The notes under the pieces: generated by a model
Seen by the model: the letters and a program-made list of their open reading frames with translations, nothing else
Told to the model about the DNA's origin: nothing
Database searches by the model: none
Made by a program: the position numbers and the translations under genes
UHGV virus genome: UHGV-0018629
Direction: 5' to 3' (one strand)
DNA: 64,000 bases
Source: a virus
In this document: positions 2,614 through 43,321 of the stretch, piece after piece
Layout: every line of letters begins with the position of its first letter
How positions within the stretch are numbered: the first letter of the stretch is position 1

Positions 2614-5600
2614 ATGGCCGAGATTAAAAGAAAGTTCAGAGCGGAAGACGGTCTGGACGCAGGTGGCGATAAAATAATCAACGTAGCTTTAGCTGATCGT
2701 ACCGTAGGAACTGACGGTGTTAACGTTGATTACTTAATTCAAGAAAACACAGTTCAACAATATGATCCAACTCGTGGATATTTAAAAGATTTTGTAATCA
2801 TTTATGATAACCGCTTTTGGGCTGCTATAAATGATATTCCAAAACCAGCAGGAGCTTTTAATAGTGTACGATGGAGAGCGTTACGTACTGATGCAAACTG
2901 GACAACTGTTTCGTCAGGACCTTATCAATTAAAATCAGGCGAATCAATTTCAGTTAACACTGCAGCGGGTAATGACATTACATTTACTTTGCCAACTTCT
3001 CCAATTGATGGAGATACTATCGTTCTTCAAGATATTGGTGGAAAACCTGGAGTTAACCAGGTTTTAATTACAGCTCCGGTACAAAGCATTGTAAACTTCA
3101 GAGGTCAACAAGTACGCTCAGTACTAATGACTCATCCAAAATCACAGATAGTTTTAATTTTTAGTAATCGTCTGTGGCAAATGTATGTTGCTGATTATAG
3201 CAGAGAAGCGGCAGTTGTAACGCCAGCGAGTCTTTATCAAGCGCAATCAAACGATTTTATCGTGCGTAGATTTACTTCTGCTTCAGCAATTAATATTAAA
3301 CTTCCGAGATTTGCTAATCACGGGGATATCATTAATTTCGTTGATTTGGATAAATTAAATCCTCTTTATCATACAATTGTTACTACATATGATGAAACGA
3401 CTTCAGTGCAAGAAGTTGGAACTCATTCCATTGAAGGCCGTACATCTATTGATGGTTTCTTGATGTTTGATGATAATGAGAAACTGTGGAGATTGTTTGA
3501 CGGGGATAGTAAAGCCCGTTTACGTATCATAACGACTAATTCAAACATTCGTCCAAATGAAGAAGTTATGGTATTTGGTGCGAATAATGGAACAACTCAA
3601 ACGATTGAACTTCAGCTTCCGACCGATATTTCCATTGGTGATACTGTTAAAATTTCCATGAATTATATGAGAAAAGGACAAACAGTTAAAATCAAAGCTG
3701 CCGGTGAAGATAAAATTGCTTCTTCAGTTCAATTGCTGCAATTCCCAAAACGTTCAGAATATCCGCCTGAAACTAAATGGGTGACTGTTCAAGAATTAGT
3801 TTTTAATGGTGAAACCAATTATGTTCCAGTTTTACAGCTTGCTTATATCGAAGATTCTGATGGAAAATATTGGGTTGTACAGCAAAACGTTCCAACTGTA
3901 GAAAGAGTAGACTCTTTAAATAATTCTACCAGAGCAAGATTAGGCGTAATTGCTTTAGCTACACAGGCTCAAGCTAATGCAGATTTAGAAAATTCTCCAC
4001 AAAAAGAATTAGCAATTACTCCAGAAACGTTAGCTAATCGTACTGCTACAGAAACTCGTAGAGGTATTGCAAGAATAGCAACAACTGCACAAGTTAACCA
4101 GGATACTACATTCTCTTTTGCAGATGACCTTATCATCACTCCTAAAAAGCTGAATGAAAGAACTGCTACAGAAACTCGCAGGGGTGTCGCTGAAATTGCT
4201 ACGCAGCAGGAAACTAACACAGGTACTGATGATACTACAATCATCACTCCTAAAAAGCTTCAAGCTCGACAAGGTTCTGAATCATTATCTGGTATTGTAA
4301 CCTTTGTATCTACTGCAGGAGCTACTCCAGCTTCTAGTCGTGAATTAAATGGTACAAATGTTTATAATAAAAACACTAATAATTTAGTTGTTTCGCCTAA
4401 AGCACTGGATCAATATAAAGCTACTCCAACGCAACAAGGTGCGGTAATTTTAGCAGTTGAAAGTGAAGTAATTGCTGGACAAAGCCAAGAAGGATGGGCA
4501 AATGCGGTTGTAACGCCAGAAACGTTACATAAAAAGACATCAACTGATGGAAGAATTGGTTTAATTGAAATTGCTACGCAAAGTGAAGTTAATACAGGAA
4601 CTGATTATACTCGTGCAGTCACTCCTAAAACTTTAAATGACCGTAAAGCAACTGAAAGTTTAAGTGGTATAGCTGAAATTGCTACACAAGTTGAATTCGA
4701 CGCAGGCGTCGACGATACTCGTATCTCTACACCATTAAAAATTAAAACCAGATTTAATAGTACTGATCGTACTTCTGTTGTTGCTCTATCTGGATTAGTT
4801 GAATCAGGAACTCTCTGGGACCATTATACCCTTAATATTCTTGAAGCAAATGAGACACAGCGTGGTACACTTCGTGTGGCTACACAAGTTGAAGCTGCTG
4901 CAGGAACATTAGATAATGTTCTAATAACTCCTAAAAAGCTTTTAGGTACTAAATCTACTGAAGCGCAAGAAGGCGTTATTAAAGTTGCAACTCAGGTTGA
5001 AACTGTAGCTGGAACGTCAGCAAATACTGCTGTATCTCCAAAAAATTTAAAATGGATTGTACAGAGTGAACCTACTTGGGCAGCAACTACTTTGGTAAGA
5101 GGTTTTGTTAAAACTTCATCTGGTTCAATTACATTCGTTGGTAATGATACCGTTGGTTCAACACAGTCATTAGAATTATACGAAAAAAATAGCTATGCAG
5201 TATCGCCATATGAATTAAACCGTGTATTAGCAAATTATTTGCCGTTAAAAGCAAAAGCTGCAGATAGTAATTTATTAGATGGTCTAGATTCATCTCAGTT
5301 CATTCGTAGGGATATTGCGCAGACGGTTAATGGTTCACTAACCTTAACCCAACAAACGAATCTGAGTGCCCCTCTTGTATCATCTAGTACTGCTACGTTT
5401 GGTGGGTCAGTTTCAGCAAATAGTACATTAACTATTTCTAATACTGGAACAGCAACTCGATTGATTTTTGAGAAAGGACCTCAAACTGGAACAAACCCAG
5501 CTCAAACGATGACTGTTAGAGTGTGGGGAAATCAATTTAGTGGGGAATCAGACACAACACGTTCTACCGTATTTGAAGTTAGTGATGAAACATCTAGTCA

Positions 5601-14900: not shown

Positions 14901-15226
14901 TTAAACCATCCTTTAATACGCTGCCACAAAGTTTTCTGTTGAGCTTTGTTAACACCAATTGAGCGAATAACTGACTGAGATTCCTGGAATTCTTTATAAT
15001 CAGCAAGGTAAATTTCGTAAGCTGCATCTGTAAATGAACTTATCGCTGCCATAAAATTATTGCGAATACCTACTGGAGCATCTTTACTTTCACGAATAAT
15101 CATGTATTTACCAGTCTTAATCTTTACAATAGTTCCAAGATAAGCTCCGTGGTACCAGATGTCCCACCCCTCTTGAGTGGGTTCTGCACAACGACGAAGT
15201 TCATTAACAATTTCTAACTTGTTCAT
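14897..15226 (-). CDS. hypothetical protein (motA.1-like position)
   Basis: 109-aa ORF directly downstream of motA. Confidence 0.5.
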
Positions 15227-15236
15227 TATTTATTCC

Positions 15237-15872
15237 TCACAGTTCAGATGCTACGGTGATTACTGCTTCAATGTTTTCTGCCGAGCGTTTAATGTCAAGA
15301 TACACATTACCATTTTTAGCGATTTTACATGACATTCCGATATCAGTAAATTTCTGAATATGATGTTCCATCATTTTGTATCCAAAAATTCGCATATTTC
15401 CATTGTTGTTAATTTCAAAATTGCGAATTCCATGAGTGCGTTTTTCTAAAATAGCAAGATAGTTACTGCGGTAAGTTTCAACCTTTTTAAGAACAAATCC
15501 ATTTTCATCTAAAAGTTTTAACATGAAGTCTTTATCTTCTTCCATATCGGAAGTAATCTCACGAGCTTTACGAGTTGCTCGTTTTTTCAGCAGTTCAGGA
15601 GCATTTTCCTGCGCGTATAAAGTTGCTGCATTTGAAATAATATCCTGAGCTTCACCTGTAATGATTAATCCATCACCAGATTTCTCCACCAGGCCTTTTT
15701 TAATCAATACCCCAATATTACTATTAACTACTGCGTTACCTAAATCTGGATGCACCTCACGAACTTCTGCAGCTGTAATGAAATCTTTCTTAGCAATGGT
15801 AATTAAAATCGCAGCAGTTTTTTCATTCAGAACATCGTTAGAAGCTTTGATGATGTAAGTTACTTTAGACAT
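15237..15872 (-). CDS. motA: middle-transcription activator MotA
   Basis: 211-aa ORF MSKVTYIIKASNDVLNEKTAAILITIAKKDFITAAEVREV...; matches T4 MotA length and sequence. Confidence 0.9.
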   Translation of the reverse strand: MSKVTYIIKASNDVLNEKTAAILITIAKKDFITAAEVREVHPDLGNAVVNSNIGVLIKKGLVEKSGDGLIITGEAQDIISNAATLYAQENAPELLKKRATRKAREITSDMEEDKDFMLKLLDENGFVLKKVETYRSNYLAILEKRTHGIRNFEINNNGNMRIFGYKMMEHHIQKFTDIGMSCKIAKNGNVYLDIKRSAENIEAVITVASEL

Positions 15873-15913
15873 TTTCTAATCTCCGTAATTCTGTATCAGT
15901 AGTTGATAGTTGT

Positions 15914-15942
15914 ATAGTACCACAGTATGCTTTGGTTGTAAA
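15914..15942 (-). promoter_or_regulatory. T4 early-type promoter upstream of motA
   Basis: Minus strand GTTTACA-17nt-TGGTACTATACAACTATC, with AAAAATTTTTTCACAAAAC UP-like tract. Confidence 0.5.
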
Positions 15943-15967
15943 CCGTTTTGTGAAAAAATTTTTGAAA

Positions 15968-15994
15968 TAAAAAAGGGAGAGCCGAGGCTCTCCC
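15968..15994 (-). terminator. rho-independent terminator-like hairpin
   Basis: GGGAGAGC-CGAG-GCTCTCCC 8-bp stem followed on the minus strand by a U run. Confidence 0.5.
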
Positions 15995-15999
15995 TAAAA

Positions 16000-16149
16000 T
16001 TACTGCATGACTGTGATAACTGTCATGATAACACGTTGAATTCCGAACGCAAGAAGACCTCCTGCTACGGCTGGAACAACACCTAAACCCGCCAGTAAAA
16101 TGCTACCAGATACTAATGCAGCGCTTGTAATACCAATGAATGGACTCAT
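16000..16149 (-). CDS. hypothetical small membrane protein (49 aa)
   Basis: Unlisted ORF MSPFIGITSAALVSGSILLAGLGVVPAVAGGLLAFGIQRVIMTVITVMQ; ATG overlaps gene 52 stop (ATGA). Confidence 0.4.
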   Translation of the reverse strand: MSPFIGITSAALVSGSILLAGLGVVPAVAGGLLAFGIQRVIMTVITVMQ

Positions 16150-17474
16150 TTGATTTCCTCTAAATCTTTGGTGTATTCTGTAACTACATCAGTAGTTTTC
16201 CAATATTCGTTTTCTTCTTTTTTAGCTTTAGCTTCTTCAGCAAGTTTCTTTGCTTCGTCAGAAGTCATATGAAAAATGTTCATTCCAACTAGTTTATCAA
16301 CATAAGAAGAATACATATCAATTTTAGAAAGTTCTTCGGTCAGTTCTTTGCGAGTTTTACCTTGTACAACAATTTCACCTGAAATTACTTTCTTAATGAA
16401 ATGCGCCTTGGCAAAAGCTAAACGAAATGCTGATTCAGTTTCTTTTATTTTGTTATCAATTCGTTTTTGGACATAAGTTTTACGAACTTCAACGAAGTCT
16501 TTGATTAAATCAACTACGTTATCGTAAACTTGTAGTTTTCCTTTCTCATTAATAACGGTAATATTCTGGGAACGACGCTCAATCAACCCGAAGTCTTTCA
16601 TAATTTTTGCATGGCGTTCTTCTTCATTATCGCTCAAAGAATATTCTTTGCGGAATTTAACTTTGAATCCAAAACCATGCTCACCGCAAGCATCATCCCA
16701 TGTAATGAAGCCTTTATCTTCAAGTGGGTCTAAGATTTTACTCACATAAGTTTCACGATCATACTTATACGGAATCTCAGTGATATGCATTTGAGTTCGT
16801 GAAGTAAACTTGTACGTTCCACGAATTTCATATTGACCGTCAATTTCAACGACTTCACCACGAAATTCTGGGAATTCTACCTTCGGTTTAGTTACTTTCT
16901 TTCCTTGAAGAGCTTGTAGTACAGCTTTCTTGACAGAAGAAACACTATGAGGAAGAATGTAAGTTGCATAACCAGTTGCAATACCGGAAACACCGTTAAG
17001 AAGAACAGTAGGAATAATAGGCAAATAGAAAGCAGGCGGAATGTGTTCTTTATCTTGATGTACCGGAGCATATTCAGTATCTTTATATACGCTATAGAAA
17101 TTTTTACTTACACGAGCAAAAATATAACGACTTGCCGCTGCTTTTTGAACGGTACGAGAACCAAAGTTTCCTTGACCATCTAACAAAGGAAAGTTATTAT
17201 TCCAAGTATTAGCCATCAAAGCCCCAGCATCTTGCGCAGAGTTTTCACCATGATGATATCCAAGGTCTGCTACACCGCCTGCAATAGAAGCGAGTTTGTG
17301 AAACTTATCTTTATTTCCTCGTGCCAAATCAAGAGCTCGAGCAATAACAAATCGTTGAACTGGCTTAAATCCATCAATCATATTTGGGATAGCACGATTT
17401 TCAACCGTGTACATAGCATAAGCCAATGCTTCATTATCAATGATACTTTTTAAATCGCGATTATTCAGTTGCAT
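16146..17474 (-). CDS. 52: DNA topoisomerase II medium subunit gp52 (GyrA-like cleavage/religation domain)
   Basis: 442-aa ORF MQLNNRDLKSIIDNEALAYAMYTVENRAIPNMIDGFKPVQRFV...; same length as T4 gp52. Confidence 0.92.
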   Translation of the reverse strand: MQLNNRDLKSIIDNEALAYAMYTVENRAIPNMIDGFKPVQRFVIARALDLARGNKDKFHKLASIAGGVADLGYHHGENSAQDAGALMANTWNNNFPLLDGQGNFGSRTVQKAAASRYIFARVSKNFYSVYKDTEYAPVHQDKEHIPPAFYLPIIPTVLLNGVSGIATGYATYILPHSVSSVKKAVLQALQGKKVTKPKVEFPEFRGEVVEIDGQYEIRGTYKFTSRTQMHITEIPYKYDRETYVSKILDPLEDKGFITWDDACGEHGFGFKVKFRKEYSLSDNEEERHAKIMKDFGLIERRSQNITVINEKGKLQVYDNVVDLIKDFVEVRKTYVQKRIDNKIKETESAFRLAFAKAHFIKKVISGEIVVQGKTRKELTEELSKIDMYSSYVDKLVGMNIFHMTSDEAKKLAEEAKAKKEENEYWKTTDVVTEYTKDLEEIK

Positions 17475-17611
17475 AAATTTACCATACTAGTGAATGTAGT
17501 GCCATAATAACATCAGAAATGAAAAGCACGACTTGAATTAATCCGAACATTACTCCATAATATAGTGCTACCAATAAAGTAGCAAGGGCTAATGAATAGC
17601 CCAAGATTTTC

Positions 17612-17770
17612 TTAATCATTAGTAGATAACAACACAAATGTTAAATATGCACACATACCCTGGGCTAAAGCTTGTGAAAACACACTGCTAGCATCGATAC
17701 AGATAGTTAAAACACATGCTACTATCCAACAAATAAATGAAATAACTCCTAATAATTTTGCGATATTCAT
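17612..17770 (-). CDS. ac: small membrane protein, Ac-like (acriflavine sensitivity)
   Basis: ORF-track start is TTG at 17800; ATG at 17770 gives 52 aa MNIAKLLGVISFICWIVACVLTICIDASSVFSQALAQGMCAYLTFVLLSTND. Confidence 0.55.
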   Translation of the reverse strand: MNIAKLLGVISFICWIVACVLTICIDASSVFSQALAQGMCAYLTFVLLSTND

Positions 17771-17780
17771 AATATTCTCC

Positions 17781-17936
17781 TCAACTATTTTTAGAACCAA
17801 TGTACGCGAATAATGATAAAATCGCTAATACGCCCTGAGCTGATGCTTGCAAAAATACTGAAGTTTCTCCAGTTATTACTGTTCCGATGCATAAAAAGAA
17901 CCAACAGAAAAAGGCTATACCGTGAACAAATTTCAT
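17781..17936 (-). CDS. small membrane protein, paralog of the Ac-like protein
   Basis: Unlisted 51-aa ORF MKFVHGIAFFCWFFLCIGTVITGETSVFLQASAQGVLAILSLFAYIGSKNS; shares FxCW and VFxQAxAQG pattern with the adjacent ORF. Confidence 0.45.
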   Translation of the reverse strand: MKFVHGIAFFCWFFLCIGTVITGETSVFLQASAQGVLAILSLFAYIGSKNS

Positions 17937-17943
17937 ATTTTCC

Positions 17944-18024
17944 TCACTGGCGTCCGAAGACGCCTTTGGTTTTAAGATTGTTACGATAGAACTGCATCAC
18001 ATGTTCGTTATGGAAATTACTCAT
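17944..18024 (-). CDS. stp: Stp peptide (26 aa; activator of host PrrC anticodon nuclease)
   Basis: Unlisted [29 protein letters not shown] matches T4 Stp; ATG overlaps ndd stop (TAATG). Confidence 0.7.
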
Positions 18025-18479
18025 TAATATGCCTGCAAAACGAATTTAAAATTATCAGCCAACATACGGTTCATTTCTTCAAGTGTTTGATACTCAGAAT
18101 GATGATTACGAGTAAACGCTAAAGCTAACTGACCTTTTCCAAATCCTGTCGTCAAAGGTTTCATCTTAGAAGCAGGAAGATAAAATACTGTATATGGAAC
18201 ATTATTATTTGCAATAGTACGCGCAAGCTGAGACCGACGCTGACGAATATGACTTAGAACTGCACTGAATCCTTGCTTAGAACGCTGATTACCTACATAA
18301 AATCGTGCAGATACACACGGACTATCAAATGGACCACCAAATTTACTCACTAAAAAGTAAAATCCAGGTGTAGATAAAATGTCTTTATGTGGAGTTCCAA
18401 AAACCCATTCACCGCCCTTGATTGTACCAATAACAGTAGCACCTGCATTATTCAAATCAGTAACAGTCATGTATTTCAT
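18024..18479 (-). CDS. ndd: nucleoid disruption protein Ndd
   Basis: 151-aa [47 protein letters not shown]...; same length as T4 Ndd. Confidence 0.88.
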
Positions 18480-18538
18480 ATTAATTTCCTCTAATTATTT
18501 TCTACTCCAAGGCCGCATGAATACACACGGCCGATAAA

Positions 18539-18754
18539 TTAATCGTCGCAGTCGACGCTCAATTCCCAGAACTCTTCTACAGTATAAGTTTCAGTATCGT
18601 TTTCAATACAGAAACGTTCATTACTGTTATTTGCTAAAGTAGCATTAACTGTCATTTTCTCGCTAGTGCTCTTAAGAGGTGAAATACGAATTAACTGATC
18701 ACCACTATCCAAGCAAAAAATTTCGCCAACTTTTACATCTTTAAAAATTTTCAT
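18539..18754 (-). CDS. hypothetical protein (ndd.1-like position)
   Basis: 71-aa ORF with strong SD context. Confidence 0.5.
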   Translation of the reverse strand: MKIFKDVKVGEIFCLDSGDQLIRISPLKSTSEKMTVNATLANNSNERFCIENDTETYTVEEFWELSVDCDD

Positions 18755-18869
18755 AATTCACCTCAGGGAGTATAAAATCCAAATGCAGTTGTTGACCATC
18801 CCATCCAATACGGAAAATTTGCACCAACGTAAAACATGAGAATATAAAACCAACCACTCAGCAAATTCA

Positions 18870-19088
18870 TCATTTTACACCATTCCAAATTGTTTCAACC
18901 ACAGATTTTAAGCCATTTTGATGAATGTCCATTCCGACAACTGCCATCAAATAAATTCCAACTACAACTGAACCTAAGGCAAAAATCAGCATGAAAATGA
19001 ATAAAGCTGGAAAAATATTATCGAAAAACCATTCAATAAATGTAAAAGCACTGCGTTTACGCTTCATATTTTCCTCACATAAATCCAA
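18870..19088 (-). CDS. hypothetical membrane protein
   Basis: 72-aa ORF with one predicted TM helix (FPALFIFMLIFALGSVVVGIYLMAVVGM). Confidence 0.45.
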   Translation of the reverse strand: MDLCEENMKRKRSAFTFIEWFFDNIFPALFIFMLIFALGSVVVGIYLMAVVGMDIHQNGLKSVVETIWNGVK

Positions 19089-35269: not shown

Positions 35270-35604
35270 TCACAAGATGTAGATGAACAACTAGAATCAC
35301 AAGAACTTCCACACGAATCGCCCATCCATACATGAACAGGAACATTAGTATCATATGAATCAGAACTAGACTGTGTATTCTGCGTATTAGATGATGTAGG
35401 TATTGACCAGCGCCAAGGATTTTTATAATATTCCTGGGCTTCTTCATAAGTCATAGTAACTGCTTCTACTGTTCCATCTCCCATATAAACATATTCAACT
35501 ACAGTTAAAGGGAGGTAGTCATTTGAAATAGGAACTACACCTTCTCCGGGAGTCGTAGAGAAAAAATCCGTAAAGAAACTTTTAAACCAATTAAAGATAA
35601 ACAT
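35266..35604 (-). CDS. hypothetical protein with Ser/Cys-rich C-terminal tail (112 aa)
   Basis: ORF ends ...[20 protein letters not shown]; also a 69-codon ORF in another frame (35238..35447), judged spurious. Confidence 0.5.
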
Positions 35605-35816
35605 TACAAAAAGCCTCTTTGAAATTCGACTCTTTGAAATCCACCCCAGTCAGTGTATCGCATTTCAGCATTGAACTCGACTGAACCATCTGCATGCATC
35701 ATGAATGAATGCGTGACGATATCACAATCCCAGCTTTTCATACCCCATTTATCAGAGATAGCTTTATCAAGAACCTTCTGGAGGTCTTCATTTGGTTTAA
35801 TCCAACGATTTAACAT
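35604..35816 (-). CDS. hypothetical protein (70 aa)
   Basis: ORF MLNRWIKPNEDLQKVLDKAISDKWGMKSWDCDIVTHSFMMHADGSVEFNAEMRYTDWGGFQRVEFQRGFL. Confidence 0.5.
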   Translation of the reverse strand: MLNRWIKPNEDLQKVLDKAISDKWGMKSWDCDIVTHSFMMHADGSVEFNAEMRYTDWGGFQRVEFQRGFL

Positions 35817-35842
35817 AGTGCTCTCCTCTATAAGATAATTCT

Positions 35843-35872
35843 ATTATACCACACTTGTTTTGGAAAGTAAAC
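35843..35872 (-). promoter_or_regulatory. T4 early-type promoter
   Basis: Minus strand GTTTAC-17nt-TGGTATAAT. Confidence 0.45.
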
Positions 35873-35880
35873 CGGTAAAA

Positions 35881-35908
35881 TGAAAAAAGGACTCCCGAAG
35901 GAGTCCTT
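35881..35908 (-). terminator. rho-independent terminator after soc
   Basis: GGACTCC-UUCG-GGAGUCC stem-loop followed by UUUUUU on the minus-strand transcript. Confidence 0.55.
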
Positions 35909-35914
35909 GAATTA

Positions 35915-36160
35915 TTAACCACCAGTTACTTTCCACAAATCTTCGTTTGCAGTAATCCATGCATCACGTTGATTTTCTTCGTATACAGTAGTATATGCTG
36001 CTTTTTCTGAAGGGAATGTCTGGTAATGAGCGCCAGAAATTTTGTGAACGTCAGAATAAAGAGGGAAAGCTACAGAAATTTCCTTTCCTTCAATTTTCTT
36101 ATTTCCATCTAATTTCTGCTCAAATGTTTTAATATTAACATAACCGCGAGTACTAGCCAT
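35915..36160 (-). CDS. soc: small outer capsid protein Soc
   Basis: 81-aa ORF MASTRGYVNIKTFEQKLDGNKKIEGKEISVAFPLYSDVHKISGAHYQTFPSEKAAYTTVYEEN...; matches T4 Soc. Confidence 0.9.
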   Translation of the reverse strand: MASTRGYVNIKTFEQKLDGNKKIEGKEISVAFPLYSDVHKISGAHYQTFPSEKAAYTTVYEENQRDAWITANEDLWKVTGG

Positions 36161-36190
36161 GTAATTCTCCTTTTATTTAAATTACATGAC

Positions 36191-36198
36191 TATTTATA
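36191..36198 (-). promoter_or_regulatory. T4-type late promoter TATAAATA for soc
   Basis: Reverse complement of tatttata, about 30 nt upstream of soc ATG. Confidence 0.5.
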
Positions 36199-36232
36199 AT
36201 AAATTCTCACAGCTTTTAAGCCGTCGTTTATA

Positions 36233-36751
36233 TTAATAACCTCGGTCTTGACGAGCGAAGTTTTCAGCATTTTTCAGATAATAAAGTTTAAAGATTTCTT
36301 CAGCCGTAAGACCGAGACCTTGGAACATGTTCAGAACGAAATGAAGAATATCAATCATTTCGAATTTAATTTCCAACTGGTCTTGTGGAGACAAATCAGT
36401 AATTAAAGTTTCACGGCGTTCACCATGCTGTGACTTCCAAGGTTTCCATACAGCAGATGCATCTTTTTCACCATTGCTCATACCACCAAGAGAAGTCAGT
36501 AGTTCGCGGAATTCATCATCAATATAATCTTTCTGATTACGCAACCAATCAACAACTTCGCCTGCGGTAGCCAAATCATCAGGATGACGGTTATATTCAG
36601 GTTTATCTTTAGCTAAACGAACCTGCAGAGATTTCTGCATATCAAGCATAACCTGCAGTGGGTCTTTTTCATCACCGAGAATATCCCAGTATTCATTTTG
36701 AGCTTTATCAGCGCCTTCAATCAGTTGTGAACATTCATTAAAGTATGCCAT
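36233..36751 (-). CDS. 56: dCTPase/dCDPase gp56 (MazG-like NTP pyrophosphohydrolase)
   Basis: ORF track 203 aa; T4 gp56 is ~171 aa starting MAHFNEC, so start at internal ATG 36751 (MAYFNECSQLIEG...). Confidence 0.85.
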   Translation of the reverse strand: MAYFNECSQLIEGADKAQNEYWDILGDEKDPLQVMLDMQKSLQVRLAKDKPEYNRHPDDLATAGEVVDWLRNQKDYIDDEFRELLTSLGGMSNGEKDASAVWKPWKSQHGERRETLITDLSPQDQLEIKFEMIDILHFVLNMFQGLGLTAEEIFKLYYLKNAENFARQDRGY

Positions 36752-36822
36752 TATTTTTCCTTTCAATTCATGGGTTAGTAGATTAATTATACAATAAATA
36801 TATAAAGCAATAAGGAGGACAT

Positions 36823-37023
36823 ATGGTACAAAAATTAATGGCACTTATTAATGCCATAAAAGGTAATAAAAAACGTATAGCTTTTACTATTTCTGCTATG
36901 GTAGGAATTTTACTCTGGAACTTTATTTTATCACCAATTGCAATTGCGCATGGTGTTAATATTCCAGTAGTTACTCTTGATACATTCGTAGATTTAGCAT
37001 TTGCTTTAGTTGGGCTAATTTAA
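36823..37023 (+). CDS. hypothetical small hydrophobic protein (66 aa), plus strand, convergent with gene 61
   Basis: ATG preceded by SD AAGGAGG; stop TAA overlaps gene 61 stop in TTAA; the only plus-strand ORF with a good RBS in the minus-strand early block. Confidence 0.3.
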   Translation: MVQKLMALINAIKGNKKRIAFTISAMVGILLWNFILSPIAIAHGVNIPVVTLDTFVDLAFALVGLI

Positions 37024-38048
37024 ATCTTGGCATATTTAGATAGCCGCATTTTAGCCATTAACCCCTGGGCAATATTATTTTTCATATATTCCATAATTTG
37101 TTCAGGGGTTGCACCTTCCTTTCTAATCATATCATTAACATCTTTAGATTTCCAGGGAGATTTATCCCAAAACATAACCCTTTCTCCTGCATTGACTAAT
37201 TTAGTCATTCGCTTAATTGTATCAGGATGCCGAGGTTCATTATCTAAGACCCACACACGTCTATCTTTAAATGGAACAACTTCTAGGTCTAATTGACCAC
37301 CCGTAATGGCTATACCATTTTCAATAAAAAGTGAATCGATAGGTCCTTCTAGAACATATACATCACCATCTTTAACTCGTTCAACACCGTAAATTTTTGT
37401 TGCCTCAGGATAAGCTTTGATAGTGATATATTTTTGAGGAGCATCTTTCTTTAATGCACGTCCTTGAAAAGACTCAGCTTTTCCGTTAGCGTTATAAATT
37501 GGAATAACAAGACGAGGCTCAGGTATTTCCTTTTTGTATGTTCCTGGAGCTATGCTATTAACTAATTTAGGCCATTCAGTTGTAAACCAAAGATATTTCC
37601 ATTTATCCTTTGGAATACAACGAGCTTTTACATATTTTATAATTGGATGGTCTTCCGCCAGTTTATCTAATCTAATGCATGACGGAAGAGATTTAATTAT
37701 TTTCTTCTCAGGTTGTTTAGGAAGTTCTTTAGGTTTTTCTACTGGACGACTTTTACCTTTTTCTTTTCTTATTTCAAAGATATACTCACGATATAAATCA
37801 GGTTCAAACTCCTTTAAATATATTCCAATTGGTGCATGATAGTTACAGTTATAACAATGAATATTTCCTTCATTATTATCACCGTAATACCATCCACGGG
37901 CTTTATTTTGATCGGTTTTTGAATCTCCACAAACAGGACATCTAAACCGTAATTTAAAAGTTGAACTATTATTTACTTGTGTGAATTTAGGTAAATGAGC
38001 TAATGCACGGTATGCAAACTCATTATCAATCCAAGGTATTGATGACAT
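37020..38048 (-). CDS. 61: DNA primase gp61
   Basis: 342-aa ORF MSSIPWIDNEFAYRALAHLPKF... with zinc ribbon CPVCGDS...CYNC; same length as T4 gp61. Confidence 0.92.
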   Translation of the reverse strand: MSSIPWIDNEFAYRALAHLPKFTQVNNSSTFKLRFRCPVCGDSKTDQNKARGWYYGDNNEGNIHCYNCNYHAPIGIYLKEFEPDLYREYIFEIRKEKGKSRPVEKPKELPKQPEKKIIKSLPSCIRLDKLAEDHPIIKYVKARCIPKDKWKYLWFTTEWPKLVNSIAPGTYKKEIPEPRLVIPIYNANGKAESFQGRALKKDAPQKYITIKAYPEATKIYGVERVKDGDVYVLEGPIDSLFIENGIAITGGQLDLEVVPFKDRRVWVLDNEPRHPDTIKRMTKLVNAGERVMFWDKSPWKSKDVNDMIRKEGATPEQIMEYMKNNIAQGLMAKMRLSKYAKI

Positions 38049-38216: not shown

Positions 38217-38573
38217 TTAACCTCTATTCATAAAAGCATTAAAAATTTGGTCATCAATAGATGGAATAGCAACCTTTTCTACATCATTTAACAAATCATT
38301 AATTTCATCAGATAGCATAACGCATGTACCTTTATTTCCTGTAATTGTTACTGCACAATTACGAACGTTTTCTTTATCAAATTTTAGGTTAATATTTTCG
38401 TAGTGAAAATCTTTTAATGCCGAATATATTTTTAAAATGAAATTGTCTTTTACTACAATAAACCCAACTTCACTATTAAAACGCGGTTCATGGAAACTGT
38501 AATAAACCTTTTCATCTATAAAATCGTATGAAATTTTTTCCATTTTTAAATATGAAAATTCAGAACTATACAT
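38217..38573 (-). CDS. hypothetical protein (118 aa)
   Basis: ORF MYSSEFSYLKMEKISYDFIDEKVYYSFHEPRFNSEVGFIVVKDNF... Confidence 0.5.
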   Translation of the reverse strand: MYSSEFSYLKMEKISYDFIDEKVYYSFHEPRFNSEVGFIVVKDNFILKIYSALKDFHYENINLKFDKENVRNCAVTITGNKGTCVMLSDEINDLLNDVEKVAIPSIDDQIFNAFMNRG

Positions 38574-38585
38574 ACTAACCTCTAA

Positions 38586-38939: not shown

Positions 38940-39239
38940 CTATTTTAAAACTTCTGCATAATCACATGTTACAAACTGTTTCTCTAACTTGACGATTTTA
39001 CGAAAGTATCTTTTGCATTGGCGAATCTGCCGCTTTGTAGGGCGCACAGCAAACTTAATAAATTCAACTCGACCAAATGGAGGGCTTTCTTCTGCCGGAA
39101 TATCTAATACTAATTCCCACGTATCTGCAATAAGTGCTTTGAATTGTGTATTTTTCCTGACGTTATACGGAGTAGGTTTAAATAAAACAATATGCATATT
39201 ATCCTCGGCAATCCACTTCACATACTTTCTTGTCATCAA
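38940..39239 (-). CDS. hypothetical protein (61.4-like position, 99 aa)
   Basis: Basic ORF MMTRKYVKWIAEDNMHIVLFKPTPYNVRKNTQFKALIADTWELVLD... Confidence 0.5.
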   Translation of the reverse strand: MMTRKYVKWIAEDNMHIVLFKPTPYNVRKNTQFKALIADTWELVLDIPAEESPPFGRVEFIKFAVRPTKRQIRQCKRYFRKIVKLEKQFVTCDYAEVLK

Positions 39240-39381
39240 TGAAAGCTTTAACTAATGCTTTATTAACTTCAGCATATTGGGTAGTAGCCCATTGAACGTC
39301 ATCTTTCATCATTGTGATTTCTTTAGTAAACATGCTTTCGTTCTTAAACCACCCCATAAAAACTACCTTTACCAATTCCAT
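39199..39381 (-). CDS. dmd: Dmd (discriminator of mRNA degradation; antitoxin against RnlA/LsoA)
   Basis: 60-aa ORF MELVKVVFMGWFKNESMFTKEITMMKDDVQWATTQYAEVNKALVKAFIDDKKVCEVDCRG; matches T4 Dmd. Confidence 0.8.
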   Translation of the reverse strand: MELVKVVFMGWFKNESMFTKEITMMKDDVQWATTQYAEVNKALVKAFIDDKKVCEVDCRG

Positions 39382-42395: not shown

Positions 42396-42472
42396 TCATT
42401 TTTTCCATAGGCATCATTATATTTTCCTCACGGGTTAAAGATAGAGTAATTATAACACAATAAATTTAGGCA

Positions 42473-43321
42473 TTAATCAACTGCTATTGGATGAATAGCA
42501 TTAAACTTATGAAACGCTTCTGATTTTTCTTTGCGCGAAACACACATGCGAAGAACTTTTAATGGCTCGTCTTCTTCACCCAACGATTTTCTCTTTTCGA
42601 TATTCGATGTTTTCCAACGAGCTTGCTCTGGAAACTCTCTGTTGATTTGCTCAAGAGCTCTATTATGTTTTGAATTACTACGAATTGAACTACATCCGCC
42701 AGGAGCTTGCGCTTTTCCAGATACAACCAGATATTTGAACAAGGCCAAATGCGGATAACCTTGATTAATTAAATTGAGAAATGCATACATGTCTTCGCAT
42801 AAATCAATTTTTCCATACCCAATTTGTTCTGTTGTAAGTTTTCCAAGGTCATACCACGTATTCGTGAATCCATATGAATTTTCACGATAATTACCCCAAG
42901 ATGAAGTAATTTTAAAAATTGGTAGACGAGCATGGCCGTGATAATATCCACAATCCATAGCATCTTCAACGTATTGAATCAATTCGTAGAATTGTTCACG
43001 GGTTAATTGATTGACTTTATCTACACAGCGACGATCATCTTTCTTTCGCATTGAGCTCATACGAATCGTAGTATCATCGTCAATCATCCAGATTCGTTGA
43101 CCTGCATACATATCAGTAATTGCTTTACGAGTACCGGCAATTCCGTTTACATCATCAGGAATAGTTATAATTTTAGCTCTAAACCCATAGGCGTCATAAT
43201 AAGCTTTTTCTTCGTGTTCACGTACTACAATATGGGGTTCATAATCACTCGGAAACATATCAAGGGCAGAAACTGCCCCGACACGCTGATAACTTGGAAT
43301 TACGAATTGAATCATTTCCAC
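42473..43321 (-). CDS. glycosyltransferase-like protein (DxD motif) at the locus where T4 has beta-gt; candidate second-step hmC glucosyltransferase of T2/T6 type
   Basis: 282-aa ORF MEMIQFVIPSYQRVGAVSALDM...IWMIDDDTTI...; not 351 aa like T4 beta-gt. Confidence 0.55.
   Translation of the reverse strand: MEMIQFVIPSYQRVGAVSALDMFPSDYEPHIVVREHEEKAYYDAYGFRAKIITIPDDVNGIAGTRKAITDMYAGQRIWMIDDDTTIRMSSMRKKDDRRCVDKVNQLTREQFYELIQYVEDAMDCGYYHGHARLPIFKITSSWGNYRENSYGFTNTWYDLGKLTTEQIGYGKIDLCEDMYAFLNLINQGYPHLALFKYLVVSGKAQAPGGCSSIRSNSKHNRALEQINREFPEQARWKTSNIEKRKSLGEEDEPLKVLRMCVSRKEKSEAFHKFNAIHPIAVD

Follow-up and report, generated by a model that had tools for sequence, protein, structure and literature searches.

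A compact soc-56-orf66-61 locus in a Tequatrovirus, with two apparently empty insertion slots beside gene 56

The window analysed here is a 64,000-nucleotide stretch of the virus genome UHGV-0018629, or 64 kb of a genome of ~165 kb. In the collection, which contains no exact match, its closest relative is ~97% identical. The region described carries soc, gene 56 and gene 61 on the minus strand and, tucked between the last two, a 66-codon frame on the plus strand that we refer to as orf66. Coordinates of genes and regulatory features are collected in Table 1.

Table 1. Genes, signals and proposed insertion slots of the soc to gene 61 region (positions in the window).
Feature	Position	Strand	Basis and details
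soc intrinsic terminator	35887-35908	-	3' of soc; stem of 9 bp rich in G+C, followed by a T run
soc, small outer capsid protein, 81 aa	35915-36160	-	Pfam PF16855, E 4e-52
soc late promoter, exact T4-type TATAAATA	36191-36198	-	Motif match; 30 nt before ATG
Slot 1, empty, 71 nt	36199-36269	.	blastn breakpoints against T4; annotated T4, T2 and T6 loci
Gene 56, dCTPase/dUTPase (gp56), 172 aa	36233-36751	-	Gene call and protein comparison
Position equivalent to the T4 oriA point	36729	-	RefSeq rep_origin at T4 16763, mapped by alignment; equivalence by position
Gene 56 middle promoter	36786-36810	-	MotA box TTGCTTTA (36810-36803), 11-nt spacer, -10 TATAAT (36791-36786)
Slot 2, empty, 20 nt	36792-36811	.	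blastn breakpoints against T4; T2 and WL-3 loci
Late-promoter-like motif of orf66, AATAAATA	36793-36800	+	7 of 8 positions match; 22 nt before ATG; putative function
Shine-Dalgarno sequence of orf66, AAGGAGG	36812-36818	+	2 nt from the opposite-strand MotA box; conserved
orf66 (RB32ORF030w, 'similar to RB69ORF029w', phrog_2024), 66 aa, predicted membrane protein	36823-37023	+	PHROG, E 1e-31
Terminator-like hairpin and T run	36838-36857	-	Within orf66 codons 6-12; ~165 nt downstream of the gene 61 stop
Gene 61, DNA primase (gp61), 342 aa	37020-38048	-	Gene call

Soc shares 95% of its amino acids with T4 Soc and is 100% identical to Soc of EC121. Taking an exact TATAAATA some 20-40 nt upstream of a start codon as the mark of a T4 late promoter, soc has such a promoter, one of only four exact copies across the 64-kb window. 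The spacer between soc and gene 56 measures 72 bp and carries this one exact late promoter, much as an earlier note on this DNA had described it (about 70 bp with a late promoter only). In blastn, homology to T4 on the soc side (35785-36198 against T4 15201-15610, 94.7% identity) stops exactly at the end of the late promoter and is taken up again within gene 56 (36270-36791 against T4 16307-16825). The counterpart of the intervening slot in T4 is 696 bp long (15611-16306) and comprises segF and a diverged 3' end of gene 56; in T2 and T6, soc.1 and soc.2 are found at this place. The earlier note had reported that the locus holds no segF homing endonuclease, and a tblastn search with T4 SegF returned no match at E <= 0.01 anywhere in the window.

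The gene 56 product is 100% identical to gp56 of RB32, RB51 and EC121, with which it forms a shared allele class, 80% identical to the Mosigvirus protein and 71-74% identical to the alleles of T4, T2 and T6. Gene 56 falls into three deeply diverged, mosaic allele classes inside one genus. A longer, GTG-started version of the gene in the list of open reading frames, reaching 36844, is an artefact. By sequence comparison, the MotA box and -10 element upstream of gene 56 match those of T4 and T2 in position and architecture. According to RefSeq, the oriA primer of T4 is the gene 56 transcript, whose MotA-dependent middle promoter is retained here, and the annotated oriA point lies 22 nt inside gene 56. 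The expectation of an origin unlike T4 oriA is not supported as it stands: across the origin region segF (gene 69) is missing and gene 56 DNA is only 76.4% identical to that of T4 in blastn, but the primer promoter has been kept at the same position. The promoters of this locus would fire as they do in T4.

Gene 56 and gene 61 lie 268 bp apart, close to the ~270 bp given previously. However, this spacer had been treated as non-coding, whereas 201 bp of it correspond to the conserved orf66, which converges with gene 61 such that the two stop codons overlap tail to tail by 4 nt (TTAA). Homology to T4 is interrupted a second time at slot 2 and resumes at 36812 (36812-37084 against T4 17725-17999, 96% in blastn). 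The 20 nt of the slot correspond to 899 bp in T4 (16826-17724), which hold dam and its upstream region, and to dam and T2_31 in T2; WL-3 carries an HNH/NUMOD3 homing endonuclease between the gene 56 promoter and gene 56. The earlier note's placing of segF by gene 56 and of dam nearby in T4 proved accurate: the T4 order is soc-segF-56-oriA(16763)-dam-61, and T2 dam adjoins gene 56. T2_31, which lies next to dam in T2, may be a DpnII-like nuclease, a lead only, from a sub-threshold Pfam match (E 0.0096, 15.7 bits against a 23-bit cut-off); PDB and NCBIfam gave no match for it. No homologue of T2 soc.1, soc.2 or T2_31, or of the WL-3 homing endonuclease, was found within the 64-kb window. An Rfam search of 35500-37400 returned just two chance-level matches, each below its gathering score.

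We consider it highly probable that this phage is a Tequatrovirus with a minimal, probably basal, modular locus soc-56-orf66-61, in which gene 56 has an insertion slot on either side, both of them empty here, and that it most likely has no Dam. Slot 1 would take optional cargo between soc and gene 56, either the GIY-YIG homing endonuclease gene segF (T4) or soc.1 and soc.2 (T2, T6). Slot 2, on the orf66 side of gene 56, would take a dam cassette (T4, T2) or an HNH homing endonuclease (WL-3). The soc late promoter and terminator, the gene 56 middle promoter and, along with its ribosome-binding site, orf66 are all retained. Counting against this model, the slot 2 junction sequences show no clean target-site signature.

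A compact locus devoid of segF and dam is nothing unusual and can be seen in genomes already published. The uninterrupted 56-orf66-61 junction occurs in ~324 phage records, including RB32, RB51, EC121, T6 and the outgroup genus Mosigvirus, compared with ~182 records that have a T4-type dam, and the rarity implied by the earlier note is therefore not upheld. The compact layout is that of the majority in Tequatrovirus and of its sister genus Mosigvirus. We infer that the empty state is ancestral and not the result of a deletion. The alternative, a T4/T2-type ancestor from which dam, together with segF or soc.1/soc.2, was subsequently lost by precise deletion, appears rather unlikely. It draws on the wide occurrence of Dam-family genes, 45-58% identical to T4 Dam, in several further genera of T4-like phages, with which an ancient dam and repeated losses would be compatible. 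In addition, slot 2 of the window resembles the T4 dam cassette at both of its edges (left, AAGCAAT; right, ATAAATAT...AAGGAGG), a pattern that could arise by deletion between short similar stretches. However, such losses are hard to reconcile with the compact order of the outgroup, with the prevalence of the compact junction in Tequatrovirus and with a gene 56 allele that is nearer to Mosigvirus than to T4 or T2. Nor does the window hold any remnant of Dam, SegF, soc.1, soc.2 or T2_31. In Krischvirus ECD7, dam is located at a different locus, adjoining nrdC and gp49, which fits dam as movable cargo.

The phrog_2024 profile covers residues 2-66 of the 66 residues of orf66. The gene is annotated in RB51, EC121 and T2, and is present at the same position in T4, T6 and ST0. 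The T4 copy (NC_000866 17738-17938) differs from that of the window by 3 amino acids and is absent from the RefSeq table. Homologues were found in 693 phage records, 503 of them at >=80% identity (Tequatrovirus). Counterparts of the late-promoter-like motif upstream of orf66, each at 21 nt, are GATAAATA in T4 and AATAAATA in Mosigvirus ST0. An AlphaFold2 model of the protein has three helices at a pLDDT of 75. Searches of Pfam, NCBIfam and PADLOC gave no match, and a word-indexed search of 5.8 billion proteins recovered close relatives only, one of which bears the UniRef label 'Holin' without evidence. Among 1.84 billion representatives, searched exhaustively with HMMER, the only additions were homologues of the Mosigvirus type and long repetitive proteins that are spurious matches. 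Foldseek against BFVD retrieved the protein's own family and one weak look-alike of 31% identity from Enterobacter phage CIP9. The names RB32ORF030w and RB69ORF029w were not found in a literature search, no expression data were found for orf66, and the literature on T4 small proteins or Ribo-seq yielded nothing relevant.

We think it probable that orf66 is a genuine membrane-protein gene, probably late-transcribed, conserved next to the primase gene throughout the Tequatro- and Mosigviruses and left out of the T4 reference annotation. Its product would be a late-expressed inner-membrane protein. It is unlikely that orf66 is no gene at all and that the conservation of these 200 bp by gene 61 reflects regulatory DNA (gene 61 terminator, promoters) with an incidental open frame. 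A regulatory role would account for the terminator-like hairpin inside the 5' end of orf66, whose inverted repeat is shared by T4, and would agree with the missing RefSeq annotation. However, 687 of the 693 records, from two genera whose proteins are only ~55% identical, have the frame intact and at nearly full length, and it is preceded by a strong, conserved AAGGAGG ribosome-binding site. Selection on the protein is indicated by dN/dS values of 0.07-0.3 (~0.19 between the window and ST0) and by a pN/pS that, between Tequatrovirus and ST0, is the lowest of all six reading frames. Within the genus the discrimination is weak, with a pN/pS of 0.23 in the orf66 frame against 0.33 in the +1 frame, the only other frame computed, and this favours the regulatory reading. 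One antisense frame across orf66 is likewise free of stops. Its openness is explained by the composition of the orf66 protein, which lacks Tyr and has a single His and a single Gln; lacking a start codon, this frame was rejected as a coding frame. In T6 an ATT replaces the ATG of orf66, which also speaks for incidental openness and suggests that the gene may be dispensable or start elsewhere in some phages. Finally, a coherent transmembrane helix protein is predicted, as would be expected of a real gene. If orf66 is indeed a gene, T4 has an uncharacterised gene within a spacer long regarded as non-coding, with a possible role, for instance, in the timing of lysis, in superinfection exclusion or in membrane-linked assembly.

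The earlier note was also right that the interval holds no dam methyltransferase. No Dam homologue was detected in the 64-kb window by tblastn with T4 Dam (best E 0.3). A scan of its ORFs of >=100 aa for the (D/N/S)PP(Y/F/W/H) motif found a single instance, SPPF, in a 103-aa ORF at 38940-39251 that occupies the position of a gp61.4-like gene. The PF02086 profile, run on T4 Dam as a positive control, matches it at E 7e-51. Since only 64 kb of the genome are in hand, the absence of Dam from the remainder rests on relatives. In the close relative EC121, positions 1-135,000 gave no hit at E <= 1 in tblastn with T4 Dam and an E. coli Dam sequence, and the annotation of the whole genome lists no methyltransferase; 135-147 kb were checked by annotation only, and 135-168.8 kb were judged from the annotation together with the window's own coverage. 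Moreover, records with T4-type Dam at >=90% identity (182) and those with the compact junction (324) sum to 506, close to the 503 Tequatrovirus records with orf66, and thus form complementary sets. The likeliest reading is that the phage encodes no Dam methyltransferase, and hence there would probably be no phage-directed GATC adenine methylation of its DNA. The earlier suggestion that adenine methylation, if any, is encoded elsewhere, by a Dam or other adenine methyltransferase outside the window, is very improbable: ~100 kb of the genome lie there and other genera have Dam at other loci, but neither the EC121 results nor the record counts, which leave no excess over the Tequatrovirus total, point to such a gene.

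GATC is strongly depleted in the window (observed/expected 0.32), in EC121 (0.36) and in the dam-positive T2 (0.34). We rejected this depletion as an indicator of dam, because T2 is equally depleted. The C of GATC in T-even DNA is glucosyl-hydroxymethylcytosine, which blocks most restriction enzymes.

By itself, the compact locus matters little. For annotators, the phage belongs to the dam-less, segF-less Tequatrovirus majority, like RB32, RB51 and T6. Modestly useful are the conserved small gene absent from T4 RefSeq, the two slots flanking gene 56 and the finding that a single genus has three gene 56 alleles. The gene 56 region might undergo SegF-driven marker exclusion when T4 infects the same cell, a prediction that draws on the work of Belle et al. 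(2002).

When comparing the locus with those of known phages, the closest correspondence is seen with RB32, RB51 and EC121, which have identical gene order and spacing (soc-56-ORF030w-61). Their DNA is 92-97% identical across the locus, with point substitutions as the only differences; RB51 Soc is a longer allele of 85 aa, 86% identical to Soc of the window. T4 shares the flanking genes, the soc late promoter, a MotA-type promoter upstream of gene 56 and orf66, which sits there in the 309-bp 'intergenic' dam-61 spacer. Unlike the window, T4 has an extra 696 bp (segF) and 899 bp (dam cassette), and its gene 56 shares only 76% of its DNA sequence and 74% of its protein sequence with that of the window.

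T6 (soc-soc.1-soc.2-56-orf66-61) lacks segF and, like the window, dam. T2 has the order soc-soc.1-soc.2-56-dam-T2_31-orf66-61 and also lacks segF; PMC5931544, citing Belle et al. 2002, likewise describes T2 as lacking segF, with soc.1 and soc.2 in its stead. Both phages differ from the window in having soc.1 and soc.2 and a third gene 56 allele class. Mosigvirus (RB69/JS09 group), exemplified by ST0, has soc-56-orf65-61 (ORF029w), like the window with neither segF nor dam. Its orf66 homologue of 65 aa is convergent with and abuts the primase gene and is ~55% identical to that of the window, compared with ~49% for Soc.

The compact arrangement of soc, gene 56 and primase gene 61 in the window is what published genomes show for most Tequatroviruses, an ordinary state that does not set this genome apart. 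All large genes surrounding the interval lie on the minus strand and are homologues of T4 genes. Soc and gene 56 are separated by 72 bp, and gene 56 and gene 61 by 268 bp, in agreement with the sizes estimated in an earlier note on this DNA. The late promoter in the shorter spacer is one of only four exact copies in the 64-kb window. A mechanical ORF list extended gene 56 from a GTG codon to 203 aa; we judged this form an artefact, since the gp56 proteins annotated in the close relatives RB51 and EC121 match the 172-aa form exactly.

Features of the soc-56-61 interval in the window and in T4 (gene positions from the RefSeq T4 record), followed by the blastn alignment blocks between the two with their identity
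Feature	Window	Window strand	T4	Remark
mrh.2	35604-35816	-		T4 homologue
Strong terminator	35908-35887	-		3' of soc
soc	35915-36160	-	15331-15573	Pfam Soc, E 4e-52
Late promoter TATAAATA	36191-36198	-		soc-56 spacer, exact match
segF			15606-16280	
Gene 56 (dCTPase)	36233-36751	-	16270-16785	172 aa; T4 oriA annotated at 16763
dam			16846-17625	
orf66	36823-37023	+	NC_000866 17738-17938 (+), i.e. 5239-5439 of retrieved T4 locus L002	66 codons, AAGGAGG upstream
Gene 61 (primase)	37020-38048	-	17935-18963	T4 homologue
Block 1	35785-36198		15201-15610	94.7%
Block 2	36270-36791		16307-16825	76.4%
Block 3	36812-37084		17725-17999	96.0%

Neither segF nor dam is present, and this observation of the earlier note is confirmed because the searches of the window for both proteins were empty. 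In a tblastn search of the whole window, T4 Dam reached an E value of 0.3 at best, and homologues of T4 SegF, of T2 soc.1, soc.2 and T2_31, and of the WL-3 homing endonuclease were found nowhere in it. Among window ORFs of at least 100 aa, the sole instance of the motif (D/N/S)PP(Y/F/W/H) is an SPPF in a 103-aa ORF (38940-39251) at a gp61.4-like gene position. The proposal that adenine methylation is encoded elsewhere found no support. In EC121, a tblastn search of positions 1-135,000 with the Dam proteins of T4 and E. coli gave nothing at E ≤ 1, and the whole record lacks an annotated methyltransferase. Judged by annotation alone, EC121 135-147 kb is filled by conserved core genes, with no gap or hypothetical ORF big enough for Dam. 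The ~22 kb at the end of EC121 (about 147-168.8 kb) seems, from its position and gene order, to be the counterpart of the window's first 21.8 kb, where Dam is absent. From these 64 kb of the genome and from EC121, the phage is very probably devoid of Dam. GATC is depleted about three-fold in the window (observed/expected 0.32) and in dam-less EC121 (0.36; retrieved loci L003, L004 and L007). Dam-positive T2 (locus L012) is equally depleted (0.34), so the scarcity of GATC belongs to the lineage and has nothing to do with carrying dam. As to other modification, window ~42470-43317 aligns at ~96.7% to an EC121 gene annotated beta-glucosyl-HMC-alpha-glucosyltransferase, which is of the T2/T6 type and not T4 beta-gt; the phage DNA probably carries T2/T6-style glucosylated hydroxymethylcytosine.

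To gauge how common the compact layout is, we utilised window 35700-37300 as a megablast query, which matched 743 phage records. The best matches were Shigella phage Sfk20 (97.3%), EC121 (96.9%) and the RB51/RB32 group (about 92.5%), each of them unbroken and of equal length. A 301-nt probe across the junction of gene 56 and the small gene orf66 was uninterrupted in 324 records, and T4-type Dam at 90% identity or more occurs in 182. The sum of 506 matches the 503 Tequatrovirus records with orf66; thus the two states seem complementary, and about 64% of the genus would be without dam. The classical phage T6 is one of those that lack it, with the order soc-soc.1-soc.2-56-orf66-61. This agrees with biochemistry of the 1960s, in which a DNA methylase was induced by T2 and T4 but reportedly not by T6.

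Combining the locus maps reveals that gene 56 is flanked by two insertion slots. The first, between soc and gene 56, is empty in the window, RB32, RB51, EC121 and ST0 (sister genus Mosigvirus), and holds segF in T4 and soc.1 plus soc.2 in T2 and T6; a passage of PMC5931544, citing Belle et al. 2002, likewise states that T2 lacks segF and carries soc.1 and soc.2 in its place. The second, between gene 56 and orf66, is empty in the window and holds dam in T4 and dam plus T2_31 in T2. According to its annotation, Yersinia phage fPS-90 also carries a homing endonuclease in the second slot. In WL-3 (locus L013, 1264-1914), an HNH/NUMOD3 homing endonuclease separates the middle promoter/RBS of gene 56 precisely from its start codon, and the N-terminus of gp56 reads MPHF in place of MAYF. 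Another variable slot is the 61.1-sp stretch, which lies directly downstream of gene 61. There, a 118-aa minus-strand ORF (38217-38573), apparently RB32ORF033c-like by size and position, occupies the place of gene 61.2 in T4 and EC121; RB51 carries both, and window 38261-38585 has no EC121 match.

Within the genus, the alleles of gene 56 itself form three classes, one shared by the window, RB51 and EC121, one by T2 and T6, and one in T4, with protein identities of only 70-74%, versus 84-100% for Soc and about 94-98% for orf66 in the same phages. The window gp56 has the same protein sequence as the RB51 and EC121 alleles, and the Mosigvirus allele is otherwise closest (80%). Which class a phage has goes with the cassette that it carries in the neighbouring slot. 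Against T4, identity is 95% over nt ~30-150, 83-88% over a short central stretch and 62-77% over most of the remainder; against T2, it is 98% over the final 60 nt. The alleles are mosaics, a pattern consistent with repeated cutting by homing endonucleases, and co-conversion, in the surroundings of gene 56. SegF reportedly cleaves T2 gene 56, driving marker exclusion.

We favour empty slots as the basal state, with dam and segF probably inserted later. The outgroup Mosigvirus is compact, the compact layout is in the majority, the window's gene 56 allele is nearer to Mosigvirus than to T4 or T2, and no remnant of dam, SegF, soc.1, soc.2 or T2_31 persists in the window. Moreover, in Krischvirus ECD7 dam adjoins nrdC and gp49, a locus other than the gene 56 region, and therefore dam behaves as movable accessory cargo among T4-like phages. 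These points speak against secondary loss of dam and segF from a T4/T2-like ancestor, which is unlikely but keeps a small share of the probability because other T4-like genera widely carry Dam homologues and the slot-2 junction has no clean signature. As for the origin of the inserted cassette, T2_31 (181 aa; T2 locus L010, 1642-2187), between dam and orf66 in T2, has a PD-(D/E)xK-like motif, FDIV...EIK. Its Pfam match to DpnII, a GATC-specific restriction endonuclease, is sub-threshold (E 0.0096; 15.7 bits versus a 23-bit cut-off), and PDB and NCBIfam searches gave no support. As a weak lead, a true likeness would make the dam cassette the remnant of a GATC restriction-modification module.

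The most interesting residue of the analysis is a conserved small gene missing from the T4 reference annotation. The 56-61 gap, for which the earlier note lists no gene, holds orf66, whose stop codon overlaps that of gene 61 tail to tail within TTAA. The phrog_2024 profile spans it fully (E 1e-31); the RB51 and T2 records name it RB32ORF030w ('similar to RB69ORF029w'), and that of EC121 lists a hypothetical protein. In T4, it is intact (66 aa, three substitutions) within a 309-bp dam-61 spacer that is featureless in the RefSeq table; some newer T4 records label it a hypothetical protein. By tblastn it matched 693 phage records, near full length in 687; of the 693, 503 share at least 80% identity (Tequatrovirus) and 190 less than 60% (46-57% in the examples listed, mostly Mosigvirus). 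Among the matches listed, it abuts the primase gene in nearly every annotated one. In pairwise comparisons dN/dS ranges over 0.07-0.30 among Tequatroviruses and comes to about 0.19 with ST0, and between Tequatrovirus and ST0 its frame has the lowest pN/pS of all six, sequence-based evidence that orf66 is a real gene. One antisense frame is likewise stop-free, as follows from a protein that lacks Tyr and contains a single His and a single Gln; this frame has no start codon.

Hydropathy and an AlphaFold2 model (pLDDT 75) indicate a basic amphipathic N-terminal helix (2-12), a single transmembrane helix of some length (16-42) and, at the C-terminus, a short helix (52-62). Searches of Pfam, NCBIfam, PADLOC, large protein collections and Foldseek assigned no function. 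A late-promoter-like (A/G)ATAAATA (7/8 match) lies 21-22 nt 5' of the ATG in the window, T4 and ST0, and the gene points the same way as late transcription in T4. We infer that its predicted product would be a late-expressed small inner-membrane protein. In T6 (locus L011, about 2501-2503), ATT replaces the ATG start codon, and the annotated ORF is a shorter one from Met6; expression of orf66 may be weak there, or the gene dispensable. Antisense within codons 6-12, a terminator-like hairpin (36838-36857, minus strand; ATGGCA...TGCCAT, then a T run) lies ~165 nt beyond the stop codon of gene 61, with the same inverted repeat in T4. It could stop early gene 61 transcripts ahead of the gene 56 promoter.

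When comparing the window with T4, the RefSeq order soc-segF-56-dam-61 bears out the earlier note's placement of segF and dam near gene 56; dam adjoins gene 56 in T2 as in T4, and a different locus in either phage is not seen. Its interpretation is partly right, for the T4 map and the absences; methylation encoded elsewhere and a changed origin found no support. The T4 oriA primer is, per RefSeq, the transcript of genes 56 and segF, and relative to T4 the segF (gene 69) segment is missing and the gene 56 5' region diverged. However, upstream of gene 56 the window reads, on the minus strand, TTGCTTTA, 11 nt, TATAAT, 34 nt, ATG, and T4 and T2 have TTGCTTAC, about 12 nt, TATAAT, with a nearly identical leader, GAATTGAAAGGAAAA(A/C)TAATG. 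This matching architecture shows that the MotA-type middle promoter is retained in place. Between the three alignment blocks, the T4 segF segment measures 696 bp versus 71 nt at the equivalent window position, and dam with its upstream region 899 bp versus 20 nt. Mosigvirus ST0 has the same minimal order as the window, soc-56-orf65-61.
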